From a virus (Duplodnaviria > Heunggongvirae > Uroviricota > Caudoviricetes): DNA of 18,870 bases. This document shows positions 3,229 to 15,019 of this stretch, in pieces. Position 1 is the stretch's first letter, and each line of letters starts with the position of its first letter. Location of the stretch: IMG/VR virus record IMGVR_UViG_2917886563_000006. One strand, written 5' to 3'. The notes below the pieces were generated by a model. That model was not told the DNA's origin. It was given only the letters and a program-made list of their open reading frames with translations, and did no database searches. Position numbers and translations under genes: made by a program.

Positions 3229-3401
3229 TTCCTCGCACGATTTCTTAGCCACCGGATATCCCACAGGTGAGCCGTGTAGTTGAAGGTTTTTACGTCAGAT
3301 TCTTTTGGGATTGGCTTGCGTTTATTTCTGGAGCGTTTCGTTGGAAGATATTTGCAGTTTTCACAGATTATGTCGGTGATACTTCGTCGCTGTCTCGCCA
3401 C
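3225..3401 (-). CDS. ninE: NinE (58 aa, GTG start)
   Basis: Hand-translated: (M)[57 protein letters not shown]; AGGAGG four nt upstream of GTG; 34-nt overlap with ninD, as I recall for lambda. Confidence 0.65.
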
Positions 3402-3541
3402 ACGTCCTCCTTTTCCTGCGGTAGTGGTAACACCCCTGTTGGTGTTCTTTCACACCGGAGACACCATCGATTCCAGTAAGGCTGTCCTGGTCGAAAGCGA
3501 TCGTCTTCCTTTCGCTCTCCACATCGATAACAGTGCTTCAT
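3368..3541 (-). CDS. ninD: NinD (57 aa, Cys-rich)
   Basis: [57 protein letters not shown]; start at the internal Met so the ATG overlaps the upstream gene stop (ATGA). Confidence 0.7.
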
Positions 3542-4128
3542 GCGATCACCATTTTGCATGGTTTAATCGCCATGCCGGGAGCCAGTTCAAAATCGGAGTC
3601 GCACTGATTTCCCCACATATCCCACCCGGTCACTTTGTCGCGGCTAAATAACTCACAGCGCGGCACGTCGCCAAGCAACTTAGCTAACATGTCTCTTACG
3701 ATCGGTGGTTTTGCACTGTGCTCCATTCTCGGTGCGGTAAAGTGCTGGCATATTGAAGCGTCCATTCTCTCAGGTAACCGCCCTCGAACGGCAAACAAGC
3801 AATCCTCGCTATTTGCCCGGGTCATATGCCCCATTCCGATCGCACTGTTGCCTTTGTGCTTATTGGTTTTGTGCCAAGTAAAGCCTTTCATAGTCATCAA
3901 CCTGAATCCCCACGCCTCAATTACCTTTAGCGCTTCGGCTGGCTGTGTCGGCACCCACCACATCGCTAACAAGCAAGATTCTGGATCCGCTAAATCCCAT
4001 ACTGGCAGTCGGCAAATGTCCTGAACATTCATAACATCGTATTTATGTCCAGCACCGCGATTGCCATCGTTGGCTTTGTCGCGATATTGCCATGGCGGAT
4101 CTGCGTAAATAAGTTGGTATTTGTTCAT
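3538..4128 (-). CDS. DNA N6-adenine methyltransferase, DPPW-motif (MT-A70/Dam-like family), orphan (no cognate nuclease seen)
   Basis: 196-aa ORF with N-terminal [10 protein letters not shown] (catalytic motif IV of N6-adenine methyltransferases); occupies the position of lambda ninC between ninB and ninD. Confidence 0.8.
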
Positions 4129-4565
4129 TCAGTTTTATCTCCCCATCTCGCTTTCCACTCCAGAGCCAGTCGCGCTTCGTCTGACCACTTAACGCCATGT
4201 TCTGTACCGAATGCCTGTATAAGCTCTAATAGCTCCGCAAATTCGCTTACACGCATCCTGCTGGTTGACTGGCCTATTACCACAAAGCCATTCCCGGCAA
4301 GGTTAGGAACAACGTCTTGCTGCTTTAATGCTGCGGTAAACACACACTTCCAGCTTTCTGCATCCAGCCAGCGACCATGCCATTCAACCTGACGAGAGAC
4401 GTCACCAAGGCAAGCCCAAAGCTTTCGATTCTGGTCTAAGCTGCGGTTGCGTTCCTGAATGGTTACTACGATTGGTTTGGTTGGGTCTGGAAGGATTTGC
4501 TGGATAGCTTGAATGGCGTTCTGCTGATGGATGGGGCTTCTTAGTTCAAACGTTAGTTTCCTCAT
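4125..4565 (-). CDS. ninB: NinB (Orf recombination mediator)
   Basis: 146-aa ORF MRKLTFELRSPIHQQNAIQAIQQILPDPTKPIVVTIQERNRSLDQNRKLWACLGDV... matching lambda NinB as recalled. Confidence 0.9.
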   Translation of the reverse strand: MRKLTFELRSPIHQQNAIQAIQQILPDPTKPIVVTIQERNRSLDQNRKLWACLGDVSRQVEWHGRWLDAESWKCVFTAALKQQDVVPNLAGNGFVVIGQSTSRMRVSEFAELLELIQAFGTEHGVKWSDEARLALEWKARWGDKTE

Positions 4566-4782
4566 GGGATGAACTCCAGTGTGCGATGTTAAATTCCCAT
4601 TTAATTACCTTTGCATACCCAATTTTGAACCCATCAATACCTATCCACCGCTTGCCACTCCAATAAGCTGTACCACTTTGCTTGAAATGATGTGGATGCT
4701 TAGATTGAGTGGTCACTGTTACAGGTAAATATGGCTTCGGGTATTCCCCATTCCCTGGATAACCAGATTTAATTCTGCTCAT
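4546..4782 (-). CDS. Hypothetical protein (78 aa)
   Basis: ORF whose ATG overlaps the stop of the upstream membrane-protein gene (ATGA) and whose 3' end overlaps ninB by 20 nt; no recognisable motif. Confidence 0.4.
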   Translation of the reverse strand: MSRIKSGYPGNGEYPKPYLPVTVTTQSKHPHHFKQSGTAYWSGKRWIGIDGFKIGYAKVIKWEFNIAHWSSSHEETNV

Positions 4783-5105
4783 TGATACCCTCTCTCACTT
4801 AATCGCGCCCACGCTTCGTTAAACTCTTCTCGGGTTGCGCCGGATTTTCTTTCTTCAAACATCATGCATTCGCTGATGTCTCCCCATGACTTTGGTCGCT
4901 TTTCAGCGAACAGATCATCCCATTCGAATACCCAGCGTCCTGATTTTCGGTAGTGGTAAATGGTCAGCCATGTTGTGCTGTTCGCTGGATACCCATAGAG
5001 AACTTCGACTTTTTGATCACGGTCTTTATGCTTTTTCAGCAGGATAAAGCCAGCAACCAGCGAAGCTCCGGCAAGAATGATGATTGGAATTTGCCAGTCA
5101 GCCAC
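4779..5105 (-). CDS. Hypothetical membrane-anchored protein (108 aa, GTG start)
   Basis: Directly downstream of the tR2-like terminator, reusing a GGGGGAGAGGGAAG RBS context; N-terminal hydrophobic segment IPIIILAGASLVAGFILL followed by a charged soluble domain. Confidence 0.6.
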   Translation of the reverse strand: MADWQIPIIILAGASLVAGFILLKKHKDRDQKVEVLYGYPANSTTWLTIYHYRKSGRWVFEWDDLFAEKRPKSWGDISECMMFEERKSGATREEFNEAWARLSERGYQ

Positions 5106-5120: not shown

Positions 5121-5152
5121 AAATAAAAAGGCCTGCGATTACCAGCAGGCCT
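5121..5152 (-). terminator. Intrinsic terminator, lambda tR2-like
   Basis: Minus-strand GGCCUGCUGGUAAUCGCAGGCC hairpin followed by UUUUUAUUU; sequence matches lambda tR2 as recalled. Confidence 0.7.
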
Positions 5153-5177: not shown

Positions 5178-6554
5178 TCATACGTCAGCCCCTTGTGCAT
5201 ATCGTCTGCCACGCGCAGCAGGTGCATTTGATGCTGTGCAAATCTGTCTGGCTTCATCCTGGTCACATGCAACAAAGTGTCCGTTGCAGAACCGCTGGTA
5301 AACCGTACCAAGCGAGCCAAAACGGTTTTTCGTCACGATGATTTCAGCAAATGGCGCGGCGCTACTGTTCTCGTCATATACCGCTTCCCGATAGAGCATG
5401 ATGATTGAGTCTGCGTCCTGTTCAATGCTTCCTGAATCACGCAAATCTGCGTTTGTCGGGCGTTTGTTTGGTCGCTTCTCAACATCGCGTGAAAGCTGAC
5501 TTAGGGAGATAACAGGCGTTTTCAGGTCTTTCGCCATCGCCTTAAGGCTTCCTGAGATGTGAGCAATTGCGAGGTCGTTGCGGTCTGCTTTCGGCTTCTC
5601 AATCAGGCCAAGATAATCCGCCATGATGAGTGACAGGTTTGGATTTTCCTGTTTGTGTCGTTCTGCGATTGAGCGTATTTCTTCGACCGATAACCGCGAG
5701 GCATCGACTACCCATACATCCAAATCTGCAAGCTGATTCATGCCGTTAGCAACACGCGCCCAGCCTTCGTCATCCATCGATGCAGGATTTCGCAGCACGC
5801 TAACCGGCATCCTCCCGGCGTTGGCAATGCTTCGCTCTGCAATCTGCAATGCGCTCATTTCCATTGAGAAAATCAATACCCCGCGCCGGACGTCAGAACC
5901 AGGAATAACGCGGCTTGCAACGCCTTCGGCAATCTTCAGCGCCAGTTCGGTTTTCCCCATACCAGGACGAGCAGCGATTATCACCAGGTCTTCCGCGTTC
6001 ATCCCTCCGGTGATGGCATCAAGTTCTTCGATTCCGGTCTTCAGGGTATCTGACTCTTCTCCGTTCCTCAGACGCCTGTCAAGCGTGTCAGTGTAGTCAG
6101 TAATGATTTCCCCTAACCGTACAGGTTTTACCTCGTCACGGGGCTTTCTGATGGCTGAAAGACGCTTTACGAGCTCGTCCATCGCCTGACTCGATGTATC
6201 GATGGTTCCGCTCTGAATTGGTTCACGCATTTCATCCATGATTTCCAGCACCAGACGGCGGTGATAGTTATCCGCGACCATTCCGGCATATCCCTTCAGG
6301 TTTGCGGCACTCGGGCAGTTTTTGCTGGTCATCAGGATTGACGTGAAATGCTCCTCTCCGCACGCCTCGGCAACCATCAGCGCGTCGATTAGGTTTCTGT
6401 TTCTCGCCTGCTTGCGGATAACCTCGAAGGCTTTCCGGTAGAGCGGAATTGAAAACGCTTCCGGCTCAAGCGTTGCCAGAACGTCACTGGCAGTTGGTGT
6501 TAATCCACCAATCAGCAGGCCACCGATAACGCTCGCTTCGATATCCTGTTTCAT
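5178..6554 (-). CDS. Replicative DNA helicase, DnaB family (phage-encoded; P22 gp12-like by size and position)
   Basis: 458-aa ORF; Walker A ARPGMGKT at residues 195-202, DnaB-like N-terminal domain; located where lambda P would be. Confidence 0.9.
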
Positions 6555-8291: not shown

Positions 8292-8978
8292 ATGGATAAA
8301 TACGAACAAAGACGACTAAGGCTGATAGAGATAAGAGACCGATTCTGTAATGGAAAGGCCTCAGAGTTGGCTCGTCGAATAGAAAGGGAACCATCATACG
8401 TTTCCAGAATGCTGTATCCGGAAGGAAAAAGCGGAAAAAAACGCATTGCTGACGATATGATGGAACTAATTGAAAAATCTTTTAATCTCCCACGCGGATG
8501 GATGGACATGCTTGCAGATGGTAAAGCTGGAGCTACGGACCATCTTGAGTTTGCGGGTAACGTTCGTGCGGGTTTTGTTCCGGTAATTGGTGAAGCCGTT
8601 TTGGGAGTTGATGGCTCAGTGGATATGATTGAATTCAGATCCGGTTGGTTAAGCATCTACAGCGGCGATAAAGATGCTTACGGTCTGAAGGTTAAGGGTG
8701 ACAGCATGTGGCCAAGGATTCAGTCAGGAGAATATGTTGTTATTGAACCAAATACGCCAGTACATCCAGGTGATGAAGTCTTTGTAAGGACCAAAGACGG
8801 TCACAACATGATAAAGATCATGAACAAAACAAGAGACGGTGATTATCAGTTTAGTAGCATAAACAGTGATCACCGCCCAATCACTCTTCCTGTTGAAGAA
8901 GTTGATAAAATGCATTTTGTTTCAGCTATTGTGAAACACACCAGGTACGTAGACCAGGACGATCTGCCAAAAGTTTGA
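8292..8978 (+). CDS. cI: CI-type prophage repressor (N-terminal DNA-binding domain + C-terminal S24/LexA-like autopeptidase domain)
   Basis: 228-aa ORF; C-terminal GDSMWPRIQSGEYVVIEPN (Ser nucleophile motif) and downstream Lys typical of S24 peptidases; position and divergent arrangement with cro. Confidence 0.9.
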   Translation: MDKYEQRRLRLIEIRDRFCNGKASELARRIEREPSYVSRMLYPEGKSGKKRIADDMMELIEKSFNLPRGWMDMLADGKAGATDHLEFAGNVRAGFVPVIGEAVLGVDGSVDMIEFRSGWLSIYSGDKDAYGLKVKGDSMWPRIQSGEYVVIEPNTPVHPGDEVFVRTKDGHNMIKIMNKTRDGDYQFSSINSDHRPITLPVEEVDKMHFVSAIVKHTRYVDQDDLPKV

Positions 8979-8992
8979 GGATAAAGCAGCAA

Positions 8993-9289
8993 ATGTTTAT
9001 ACCCGGCATAGTAGTCGCTGTTGTAATCATCTGCTTCATATGGGCAAAGTTATCTCCTGTAAGCTCTAAGCATACAGCTGAACTCATGAGGAAGAAGCAT
9101 CTTATACATGAGGCAGAATCGATAATTAAAAAGTTCAAAGGCATGTCATACGACGACATGTCATCAGAGCAGATTGCTATGTATAAATGCGCCATTGAGC
9201 GCCTTGACTACTTAAACGGACTCAAACCCAAACACACCCCAGTAGAATCAAAATTGCCGCAATGGCCAAGCAATCCAAATAGCTTCTGA
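8993..9289 (+). CDS. Hypothetical small membrane protein (98 aa) in the rex slot downstream of cI
   Basis: ATG at 8993 (ORF track starts at a TTG at 8975 overlapping the cI stop); N-terminal hydrophobic helix FIPGIVVAVVIICFIWA then a charged domain; followed by a strong terminator. Confidence 0.6.
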   Translation: MFIPGIVVAVVIICFIWAKLSPVSSKHTAELMRKKHLIHEAESIIKKFKGMSYDDMSSEQIAMYKCAIERLDYLNGLKPKHTPVESKLPQWPSNPNSF

Positions 9290-14317: not shown

Positions 14318-15019
14318 ATGCCCAAAATTACCGGTGTTCTAGTGAGCCACCATGTGTTCGATATAAAAAAAGACATGGCTAATGGTTCATTCCCGAAAAC
14401 ATTATTTCCAGGCGCGACATTTCAGATGGTGGTTGACAATGATGTTGTCAATAATAATACGTTGGACTGGAGTGTTGTCACCAATGCGGGAGACAATTCG
14501 CTGACTGTAAATCAGGACGGCGTGGTGTCATTTTCAAATGATATTGATGAAAGTTGCATTGGTAAAACATTTGTTATTTTTGCGAAGGATAAAGCCACAG
14601 GGAAAAATGTGTCATCTTATTTAATTAAACCTTATCGCTTCTTTAAACCTCGTACCGCAACGTCGGACAGATTTTACGATGCATTGTTTTGGATTGAGGA
14701 TAAAAAAGGGACTGTCCCGGCACGACGCGATATCAATAATGTCCCTTTCGATGAACTGACGGGAGAAATGTTTCATGATGTAAAACGTGAAGTGAATTCC
14801 GGGCTTTTTCAGGAATGGGGATTTTTACTGTTTAGTGGGTGGACTAATCCTGTACGTGGTGATATTGGTAGTCTCGAATCAGAAATTTTCACTTTAGAAA
14901 ATGACAGTATATTTATATCGACAGTCAACTCCCTCCCATACTCCAGAGATCTCCATGATGATATGGACTCCCAGTCTGCACAGGCTGTAGCGTTTTACGG
15001 GGAATCTGTTGTTTCCTGA
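14318..15019 (+). CDS. Hypothetical protein (233 aa), cargo of the inverted-repeat-bounded AT-rich cassette
   Basis: Strong AAGGAG RBS 6 nt upstream of ATG; long AT-rich leader (14160-14317, sampled windows about 23-32% GC) and coding region about 40% GC versus a visibly higher-GC phage backbone; no signal peptide or transmembrane segment; no recognisable catalytic motif. Confidence 0.75.
   Translation: MPKITGVLVSHHVFDIKKDMANGSFPKTLFPGATFQMVVDNDVVNNNTLDWSVVTNAGDNSLTVNQDGVVSFSNDIDESCIGKTFVIFAKDKATGKNVSSYLIKPYRFFKPRTATSDRFYDALFWIEDKKGTVPARRDINNVPFDELTGEMFHDVKREVNSGLFQEWGFLLFSGWTNPVRGDIGSLESEIFTLENDSIFISTVNSLPYSRDLHDDMDSQSAQAVAFYGESVVS

Follow-up and report, generated by a model that had tools for sequence, protein, structure and literature searches.

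The window, by which we mean the whole stretch of 18,870 nucleotides analysed here, is the early region of a lambda-like E. coli prophage. On its minus strand the genes run in the order cro-like, cII, O, a DnaB-type helicase gene, two small ORFs, ninB, a methylase gene, ninD, ninE, ninX, ninF, ninG and ninH, followed on the same strand by a Ser/Thr phosphatase gene, Q, a pR'-like promoter and a tR'-like terminator. The plus strand carries cI, N, a recombination module of the P22 type (Rad52-like, SSB, Abc2), xis/int and the host gene ybhC. A lambda-type integrase gene with an Arm DNA-binding domain and then pectinesterase-like ybhC occupy positions 16382–18870 (plus strand), and because the integrase adjoins ybhC we place the prophage at the classical lambda attachment site. 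Coverage of the whole window by any complete E. coli genome never exceeds 61%; the prophage is therefore an ordinary mosaic. The features around the methylase gene are these:

3538–4128, minus strand: gene for an MT-A70 family N6-adenine methyltransferase of 196 aa (from the ORF list, the sequence, Pfam, PHROGs, PADLOC, AF2/Foldseek and dN/dS)
4090–4101, minus strand: codons for DPPW (residues 10–13), catalytic motif IV (the reverse complement, GATCCGCCATGG, encodes D P P W and was aligned to the DPPW of MTA1 by phmmer)
4139–4144, minus strand: Shine-Dalgarno-like GGGGAG within the 3' end of ninB (from sequence and ORF coordinates; putative function)
4125–4565, minus strand: ninB/orf, recombination mediator, directly upstream (Pfam NinB, E = 1.3e-54; 92% DNA identity to lambda ninB)
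3368–3559, minus strand: ninD, directly downstream (Pfam NinD, E = 9.7e-40; lambda homology resumes at 3543)
5129–5152, minus strand: tR2-like intrinsic terminator separating the helicase gene from the nin region (from a terminator scan; putative role, by analogy with lambda tR2)

The methyltransferase ORF comprises 196 codons with its ATG at 4128–4126; the coordinates and the DPPW motif given in an earlier note on this DNA were borne out, and the strand, absent from that note, is minus. The stop codon of ninB and the start codon of the methyltransferase gene share an ATGA at 4125–4128, the GGGGAG lies 10 nt 5' of the ATG, and the 3' end of the gene overlaps ninD by 22 nt. The minus strand showed no sigma-70-like site in the stretch from ninB to the methyltransferase gene. 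The strong terminator-like hairpin at 5129–5152, which consists of an 8-bp stem with six GC pairs and then a T-run (hairpin AGGCCTGC...GCAGGCCT followed by TTTTATTT), is intergenic between the ORF for the DnaB-like helicase (5178–6554) and the ORF at 4779–5105, which is where tR2 lies in lambda.

Comparison with lambda, in which the gene order is NinB-NinC-NinD-NinE, indicated that the methyltransferase gene takes the place of ninC. The DNA homology to lambda (92%) ends at 4125, where the ninB stop codon meets the methylase ATG, and returns at 3543, within the methylase gene and five bases from its 3' end, so that a 581-bp cassette stands in place of the 863-bp lambda ninC segment at codon boundaries. 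The position between ninB and ninD that had been proposed for the gene, at the place of lambda ninC, is thus supported by breaks in homology at the ninC boundaries. Position is all that the two genes have in common: lambda NinC is a PAPS-reductase-like protein of 290 aa to which the window protein has no sequence homology, although it occupies the same slot and its gene overlaps ninB by the identical four nucleotides, ATGA. A further occupant is found in phage Sf101, where gp48, an NPPY Dam-type methylase, is flanked by ninB and ninD/ninE and its gene likewise shares an ATGA with ninB; its similarity to the window is limited to 17 N-terminal residues of the annotated Sf101 ORF, which overlaps ninB. 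In HK106 and mEp234 the slot is empty. The ninB-ninD slot is a hot spot of mosaicism, open to alternative cassettes.

Downstream of NinD the Pfam matches continue with NinE and NinX, and none of the neighbouring ORFs matched a restriction enzyme in Pfam, PHROGs or PADLOC, nor did PADLOC report any defence model. The endonuclease that a Type II restriction-modification system would place beside its methylase is therefore missing from the neighbouring genes (NinB, NinD, NinE, NinX, with no PADLOC match for other nearby ORFs), in agreement with the earlier description of the gene as an orphan. NinD itself was considered as a partner of the methylase and ruled out, since lambda has NinD after NinC and the protein is not methylase-specific.

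Several other ORFs of the window drew our attention. Two minus-strand ORFs at the lambda ren position (4779–5105, 108 aa, phrog_5903; 4546–4782, 78 aa, phrog_29435) have no Pfam or PADLOC match. The same is true of a plus-strand ORF of 104 aa (8975–9289) that has an N-terminal hydrophobic segment and starts at the cI stop codon, at the position of lambda rex; it is a candidate for a lysogen-expressed accessory gene, for example one for superinfection exclusion. Within the leftward early operon, the 233-aa ORF at 14318–15019 (plus strand) contains an Ig-like domain, Invasin_D4 (E = 1.6e-8), an unusual feature here.

The only Pfam match of the methyltransferase is to MT-A70 (PF05063), with residues 4–175 aligned to positions 1–172 of the 172-position profile (E = 2.2e-25, 90 bits, against a curated cut-off of 23.9 bits). 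PHROGs assigned the protein to phrog_359, 'DNA methyltransferase' (E = 4e-107), PADLOC to its Type II methylase model MTase_II (E = 2.5e-70), and NCBIfam gave no match for it. In phmmer searches of the PDB, Tetrahymena MTA1 was matched with its catalytic DPPW opposite that of the query (E = 6e-11), and METTL3 was matched colinearly (E = 1e-6, query residues 2–186 on METTL3 387–561). Chance does not account for matches of this strength. Residues D10, P11 and W13 are invariant among 51 homologs with identities down to 37%, all of the invariant family residues are kept, and the reading frame is intact. An AF2 model built on an alignment of 51 sequences (down to 37% identity, after the addition of 36 diverse representatives) had a pLDDT of 91.7 and a pTM of 0.87, whereas a shallow alignment of 28 close homologs only (68–92% identity) had led to a pLDDT of 46 and an unusable model. 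The top Foldseek matches of the deeper model in the PDB were the METTL3 catalytic domain (E = 7e-15, TM 0.73) and MTA1 (E = 1e-13). The full-domain profile, the N-terminal DPPW motif IV and the fold of MT-A70 enzymes are all present, and the profile-search alignment of the DPPW with methyltransferase motif IV that the earlier note had made the test of its reading was obtained with Pfam, MTA1, METTL3 and Foldseek. Judged by sequence and model, the protein is a stand-alone SAM-dependent MT-A70 N6-adenine methyltransferase of class beta, and it is predicted to be functional.

The choice between MT-A70-like and Dam-like families, which had been put as a question, falls by Pfam on MT-A70; the protein is not a classical Dam (alpha class), and it has no Pfam match to classical Dam or to the T1/VT2-type phage Dam (PF05869). 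The claim that it is an N6-adenine DNA methyltransferase stands at the sequence level as far as a DPPW adenine methyltransferase is concerned; the word 'DNA' is less certain, as the closest characterised relative, when with its partner, prefers 16S rRNA. The solved MT-A70 enzymes are all heterodimers with accessory DNA- or RNA-binding subunits (PDB match list; PMC7544214). METTL3-METTL14 and the ciliate MTA1-MTA9 share the fold (TM 0.70–0.76) and the DPPW catalytic motif with the window protein, but they are only 22–25% identical to it and depend on heterodimer formation with additional subunits that bind RNA or DNA; the window protein is a bare 196 aa. Its motif IV lies at the N-terminus, there is no separate target-recognition domain, and little extends beyond the catalytic core of approximately 175 aa. 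Among distant relatives we found fusions to ParB_N or HTH domains as well as interruptions by endonuclease domains of the HNH or LAGLIDADG type.

Strong purifying selection acts on the gene, with dN/dS values of 0.03–0.11 against copies at 74–97% protein identity, taken from comparisons with unsaturated dS. Near-identical genes (at least 95%) occur, one copy each, in 39 of 5,426 complete E. coli genomes; among the matches listed, all 15 E. coli copies lie between NinB and NinD and are named 'MT-A70 family methyltransferase', a name also borne by the NCBI 99%-identical protein cluster with its 228 member sequences. There are at least 577 relatives in IMG/VR, and a NinB-type gene lies directly upstream in 40 of the best 80 of these loci (34 of PF05772, six of the DUF1367 type). 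In a further five of these 80 (L005–L084) the upstream gene encodes a protein of 147–148 aa with a weak NinB match, which would bring the count up to 45, and in L049 a DUF1367-type gene lies downstream of the methylase. The frequent pairing with NinB could reflect a functional link or simply a gene order retained within nin regions. The same best 80 include 26 copies at 96% identity or more, whose neighbours are NinD, NinE or NinF, with no winged-helix (wHTH) gene, and which are nonetheless maintained by purifying selection. The wider family numbers 12,524 clusters (50% identity) at E ≤ 1e-3. Outside E. coli, gp65 of Erwinia phage vB_EhrS_59, annotated as a DNA methyltransferase/6N-adenine methylase, is 82.5% identical to the window protein and, as in the window, lies in the nin region directly 3' of a NinB/Orf-type gene. 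Unlike that of the window, the NinB of vB_EhrS_59 is of the DUF1367 type, and the gene downstream of gp65 encodes gp66, a winged-helix protein by eye with no Pfam match. The window gene is thus already known: it is correctly named in RefSeq, widespread, and an ordinary representative of an established family at a mosaic site that is likewise known.

In the earlier note the target specificity was said to be unreadable from the sequence. That view is too cautious, since three characterised relatives are GATC-specific and make GATC a working prediction. The window protein is 63.6% identical over 187 residues to ORF07 of the Stx2a phage P14437, which represents the Stx-phage enzymes M.EcoGV and M.EcoPA8orf6770P. 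These share with it the family, the size class, a DPPW start (..LIYADPPW..), orphan status and a lambdoid prophage, and M.EcoGV is listed as methylating GATC in vivo when over-produced (Fang et al. 2012, as cited in PMC10810198; PMC6602927, Table 3). The other two characterised proteins were compared by proxy. The window protein is 45.8% identical to phiES15 gp05, which is reported to be 70% identical to p32 of Serratia phage BZS1 (PMC7556043). In a dam- host, BZS1 p32 rendered plasmid DNA resistant to MboI and sensitive to DpnI, and the DNA was still digested by control enzymes that respond to m6A in other contexts (PMC7556043). A homolog within the conjugation module of Enterococcus pMG2200 is 41.5% identical to the window protein and is presumably the same protein as M.EfaBMDam of Tn1549, which PMC7556043 describes as GATC-specific on the authority of Radlinska et al. 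2005. The window protein thus has clear homology to the representatives or proxies of all three members of the GATC-specific MT-A70 group, at 63.6%, 45.8% and 41.5%, and GATC is the parsimonious prediction because the window protein is closer to M.EcoGV than the three are to one another. BZS1 p32 and M.EfaBMDam also share its Pfam family and stand-alone architecture; they differ in the more distant relationship and in gene context, the p32 gene adjoining int and the M.EfaBMDam gene lying in the conjugation module of Tn1549, whereas the window gene lies in the nin region. The DNA-related fusions (ParB_N, HTH) of distant relatives would likewise speak for DNA as the substrate. Two enzymes considered as the closest, M.EcoGII and M.EcoGIX, were discarded on inspection: M.EcoGII is a 349-aa DPPY enzyme of the beta class and not an MT-A70 protein, and M.EcoGIX is a plasmid ssDNA methylase.

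GATC itself is strongly under-represented in the window, with 36 sites over the whole 18,870 nt (observed/expected 0.39), and is its second lowest 4-bp palindrome after CTAG. The 591-bp methyltransferase gene has five of these sites (3544, 3700, 3838, 3984 and 4098), one of them in the Asp-Pro codons of the DPPW, which amounts to 8.5 per kb versus 1.7 per kb elsewhere (Poisson P about 0.004, calculated post hoc). In the Erwinia and Enterobacter phage loci the density is 4–6 per kb. That a GATC-rich gene lies in a GATC-poor window suggests that the cassette arrived recently from a background without GATC avoidance.

The Stx-phage enzyme has a partner, the winged-helix protein PNB-2 encoded by the upstream gene, to which it binds 1:1 (Gong, Chakraborty & Koudelka 2023, PMC10810198). 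Because the gp7/gp6 terminator quoted by Gong et al. was found in P14437 between antB1 and ORF08, just before the latter, we identified ORF08 as PNB-2. Their mutagenic primer has no nucleotide-level match in P14437 (the gene was synthesised). Their reverse cloning primer maps to the end of ORF05 in P14437 (ORF at 3829–4182, primer at 4161), approximately 560 bp past the methylase stop codon, a position that we could not reconcile with the three-gene construct described, and ORF05 also looks winged-helix; the construct may have held more genes than described. Many relatives have a small winged-helix (MarR-like) gene immediately before or after the MT-A70 gene, in some cases with Pfam support and in others by eye (L002 2278–2505, L001, which is P14437, 2642–2998, L003 3085–3459, L039 3588–3875, L040 3522–3857 and L035 3585–3866). 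Pfam searches of the small neighbour ORFs of related loci gave a clear MarR-like wHTH match in some only, so that a wHTH partner common to the relatives is partly supported. The gene of the Stx phage belongs to the leftward early operon, close to int, and comes immediately after the PNB-2 gene, which is needed for the rRNA preference. The window gene, by contrast, lies in the nin region with ninB upstream of it; it matches the catalytic subunit of the Stx holoenzyme (63.6% identity), whereas the upstream wHTH gene is missing and the C-terminal tail is unrelated to that of the Stx-phage enzyme. When the whole 18.9-kb window was searched by tblastn with P14437 ORF08 and with Tyrion gp30, the winged-helix protein encoded upstream of the methylase in Tyrion, nothing better than E = 1.3 was found, and neither a PerC-like activator nor a homolog of vB_EhrS_59 gp66 was found in it.

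How the protein is read depends on how far these relatives are trusted. We think it probable, with some reserve, that it is a stand-alone, lytic-cycle, Dam-like GATC DNA methylase, for which we infer the GATC specificity, the DNA substrate, the timing of expression and the benefit. Against this stands the possibility, to our mind an unlikely one, that it is the catalytic subunit of a 16S rRNA m6A methyltransferase like M.EcoPA8orf6770P-PNB-2, which would work with a non-adjacent or unrecognised partner and alter host ribosomes during induction or lytic growth. The 63.6% identity to the Stx-phage enzyme would favour it, as the complex of that enzyme with PNB-2 favours RNA over DNA more than 13-fold, with a preference for 16S rRNA in 30S subunits (PMC10810198); so would the presence of the RNA enzyme METTL3 among the nearest solved folds and the small wHTH genes that adjoin the methylase in several related loci. 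Yet by tblastn neither PNB-2 nor the Tyrion wHTH protein has a homolog anywhere in the window, and the nin-slot copies at 96% identity or more (among the best 80 IMG/VR loci) adjoin nin genes instead. The tail suspected of binding PNB-2 is not conserved, the alignment diverging after approximately residue 176 and the window protein being 12 aa shorter, and Gong et al. state that variants without the tail occur without PNB-2 and never identified the modified rRNA base (PMC10810198). Two more distant relatives that have no partner are GATC DNA methylases (PMC7556043). That the E. coli nin-slot copies are conserved although they have no wHTH partner speaks for a catalytic protein that is of use by itself. 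Its use might also be that of a lytic m6A writer, rather than of a Dam mimic, for RNA (16S rRNA) or ssDNA intermediates without PNB-2, maybe functionally tied to the coupled NinB/Orf ssDNA recombination mediator, a reading to which we give little credence.

A DNA adenine methyltransferase of relaxed or non-GATC specificity, affording broad protection against many restriction systems as M.EcoGII or Hia5 do, is doubtful too. It would fit a protein with no recognisable target-recognition domain and barely more than the catalytic core, promiscuity is frequent among orphan methylases of phages and plasmids (PMC5778455; discussion section of PMC4659465), and a GATC methylase would be redundant in a Dam+ host. 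The non-specific enzymes, however, come from other families, M.EcoGII as described above and the Hia5 type from the alpha class (PMC5778455), whereas all three characterised members of the MT-A70 branch were scored as GATC-specific and, with BZS1 p32, the control enzymes sensitive to m6A elsewhere still cut (PMC7556043). As for function, both of the roles suggested earlier, protection of the phage genome against restriction and modulation of host genes in the lysogen, were weighed, and the former is the likelier. Orphan methylases such as Dam and CcrM are gene regulators, and the Stx-phage relative alters the spontaneous induction frequency and the virulence of lysogens (PMC10810198). Even so, we consider epigenetic regulation of host or prophage genes by this protein in lysogens very improbable, because the gene lies deep in an N-dependent pR operon, behind a tR2-like terminator and without a promoter-like site of its own. 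In lysogens, CI represses lambda pR. The prophage methylases M.EcoGI, M.EcoGII, M.EcoMIV and M.EcoMV are silent in lysogens (PMC5778455; PMC4659465). A target of GATC would already be saturated by host Dam. Least credible of all is a decaying or inert passenger gene: the near inactivity in vitro of the purified Stx-phage relative on its own (PMC10810198) could be taken to point that way, but it is opposed by the intact frame with all invariant family residues, by the dN/dS of 0.03–0.11, and by the conservation (at least 95%) across 39 genomes and dozens of prophages from IMG/VR.

The reading that we prefer, a GATC DNA methylase of the lytic cycle, would have begun with the entry of a single-gene cassette into a lambda-like prophage, where it would have displaced ninC exactly. 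Transcription from pR would have to pass the tR2-like terminator and so would need N antitermination, as expected of a delayed-early gene, and translation of the methyltransferase may be coupled to that of ninB. Because the gene lies behind this terminator in the pR operon, the protein should be produced during lytic growth and be absent from the repressed lysogen. The protein would then methylate double-stranded DNA at GATC (Dam-like m6A), as its characterised relatives do, and would maintain full GATC methylation of rapidly replicating phage DNA where host Dam falls short. Full methylation would shield the DNA against enzymes that act on unmethylated or hemimethylated GATC (restriction of the MboI/DpnII type, MutH), in E. 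coli or in other hosts. Several considerations count against the GATC reading. Specificity can change at 64% identity, and the benefit of a second GATC methylase beside E. coli Dam is questionable; PMC7556043 itself describes the part played by Dam-like enzymes of phages as poorly understood. The GATC avoidance of the prophage would lessen the need for such an enzyme, and the heterodimeric make-up of all solved MT-A70 enzymes fits poorly with one that works alone. In addition, the activity of the purified Stx-phage relative alone on dam- DNA was near background in vitro, and Gong et al. ascribe the in vivo GATC result to over-production (PMC10810198).

As an annotation, the window methyltransferase is routine, a further mosaic cassette of the lambdoid nin region. 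The slot between ninB and ninD hosts two unrelated families of DNA methylase, the Dam type and MT-A70, as well as the uncharacterised PAPS-reductase-like NinC. The substrate of the MT-A70 branch is itself a matter of disagreement, with Fang et al. and the Warsaw group scoring its members as GATC DNA methylases and Gong et al. describing a 16S rRNA methylase with a wHTH partner. The window protein, a partner-less orthologue under strong purifying selection, is a natural test case for this question of DNA versus rRNA.
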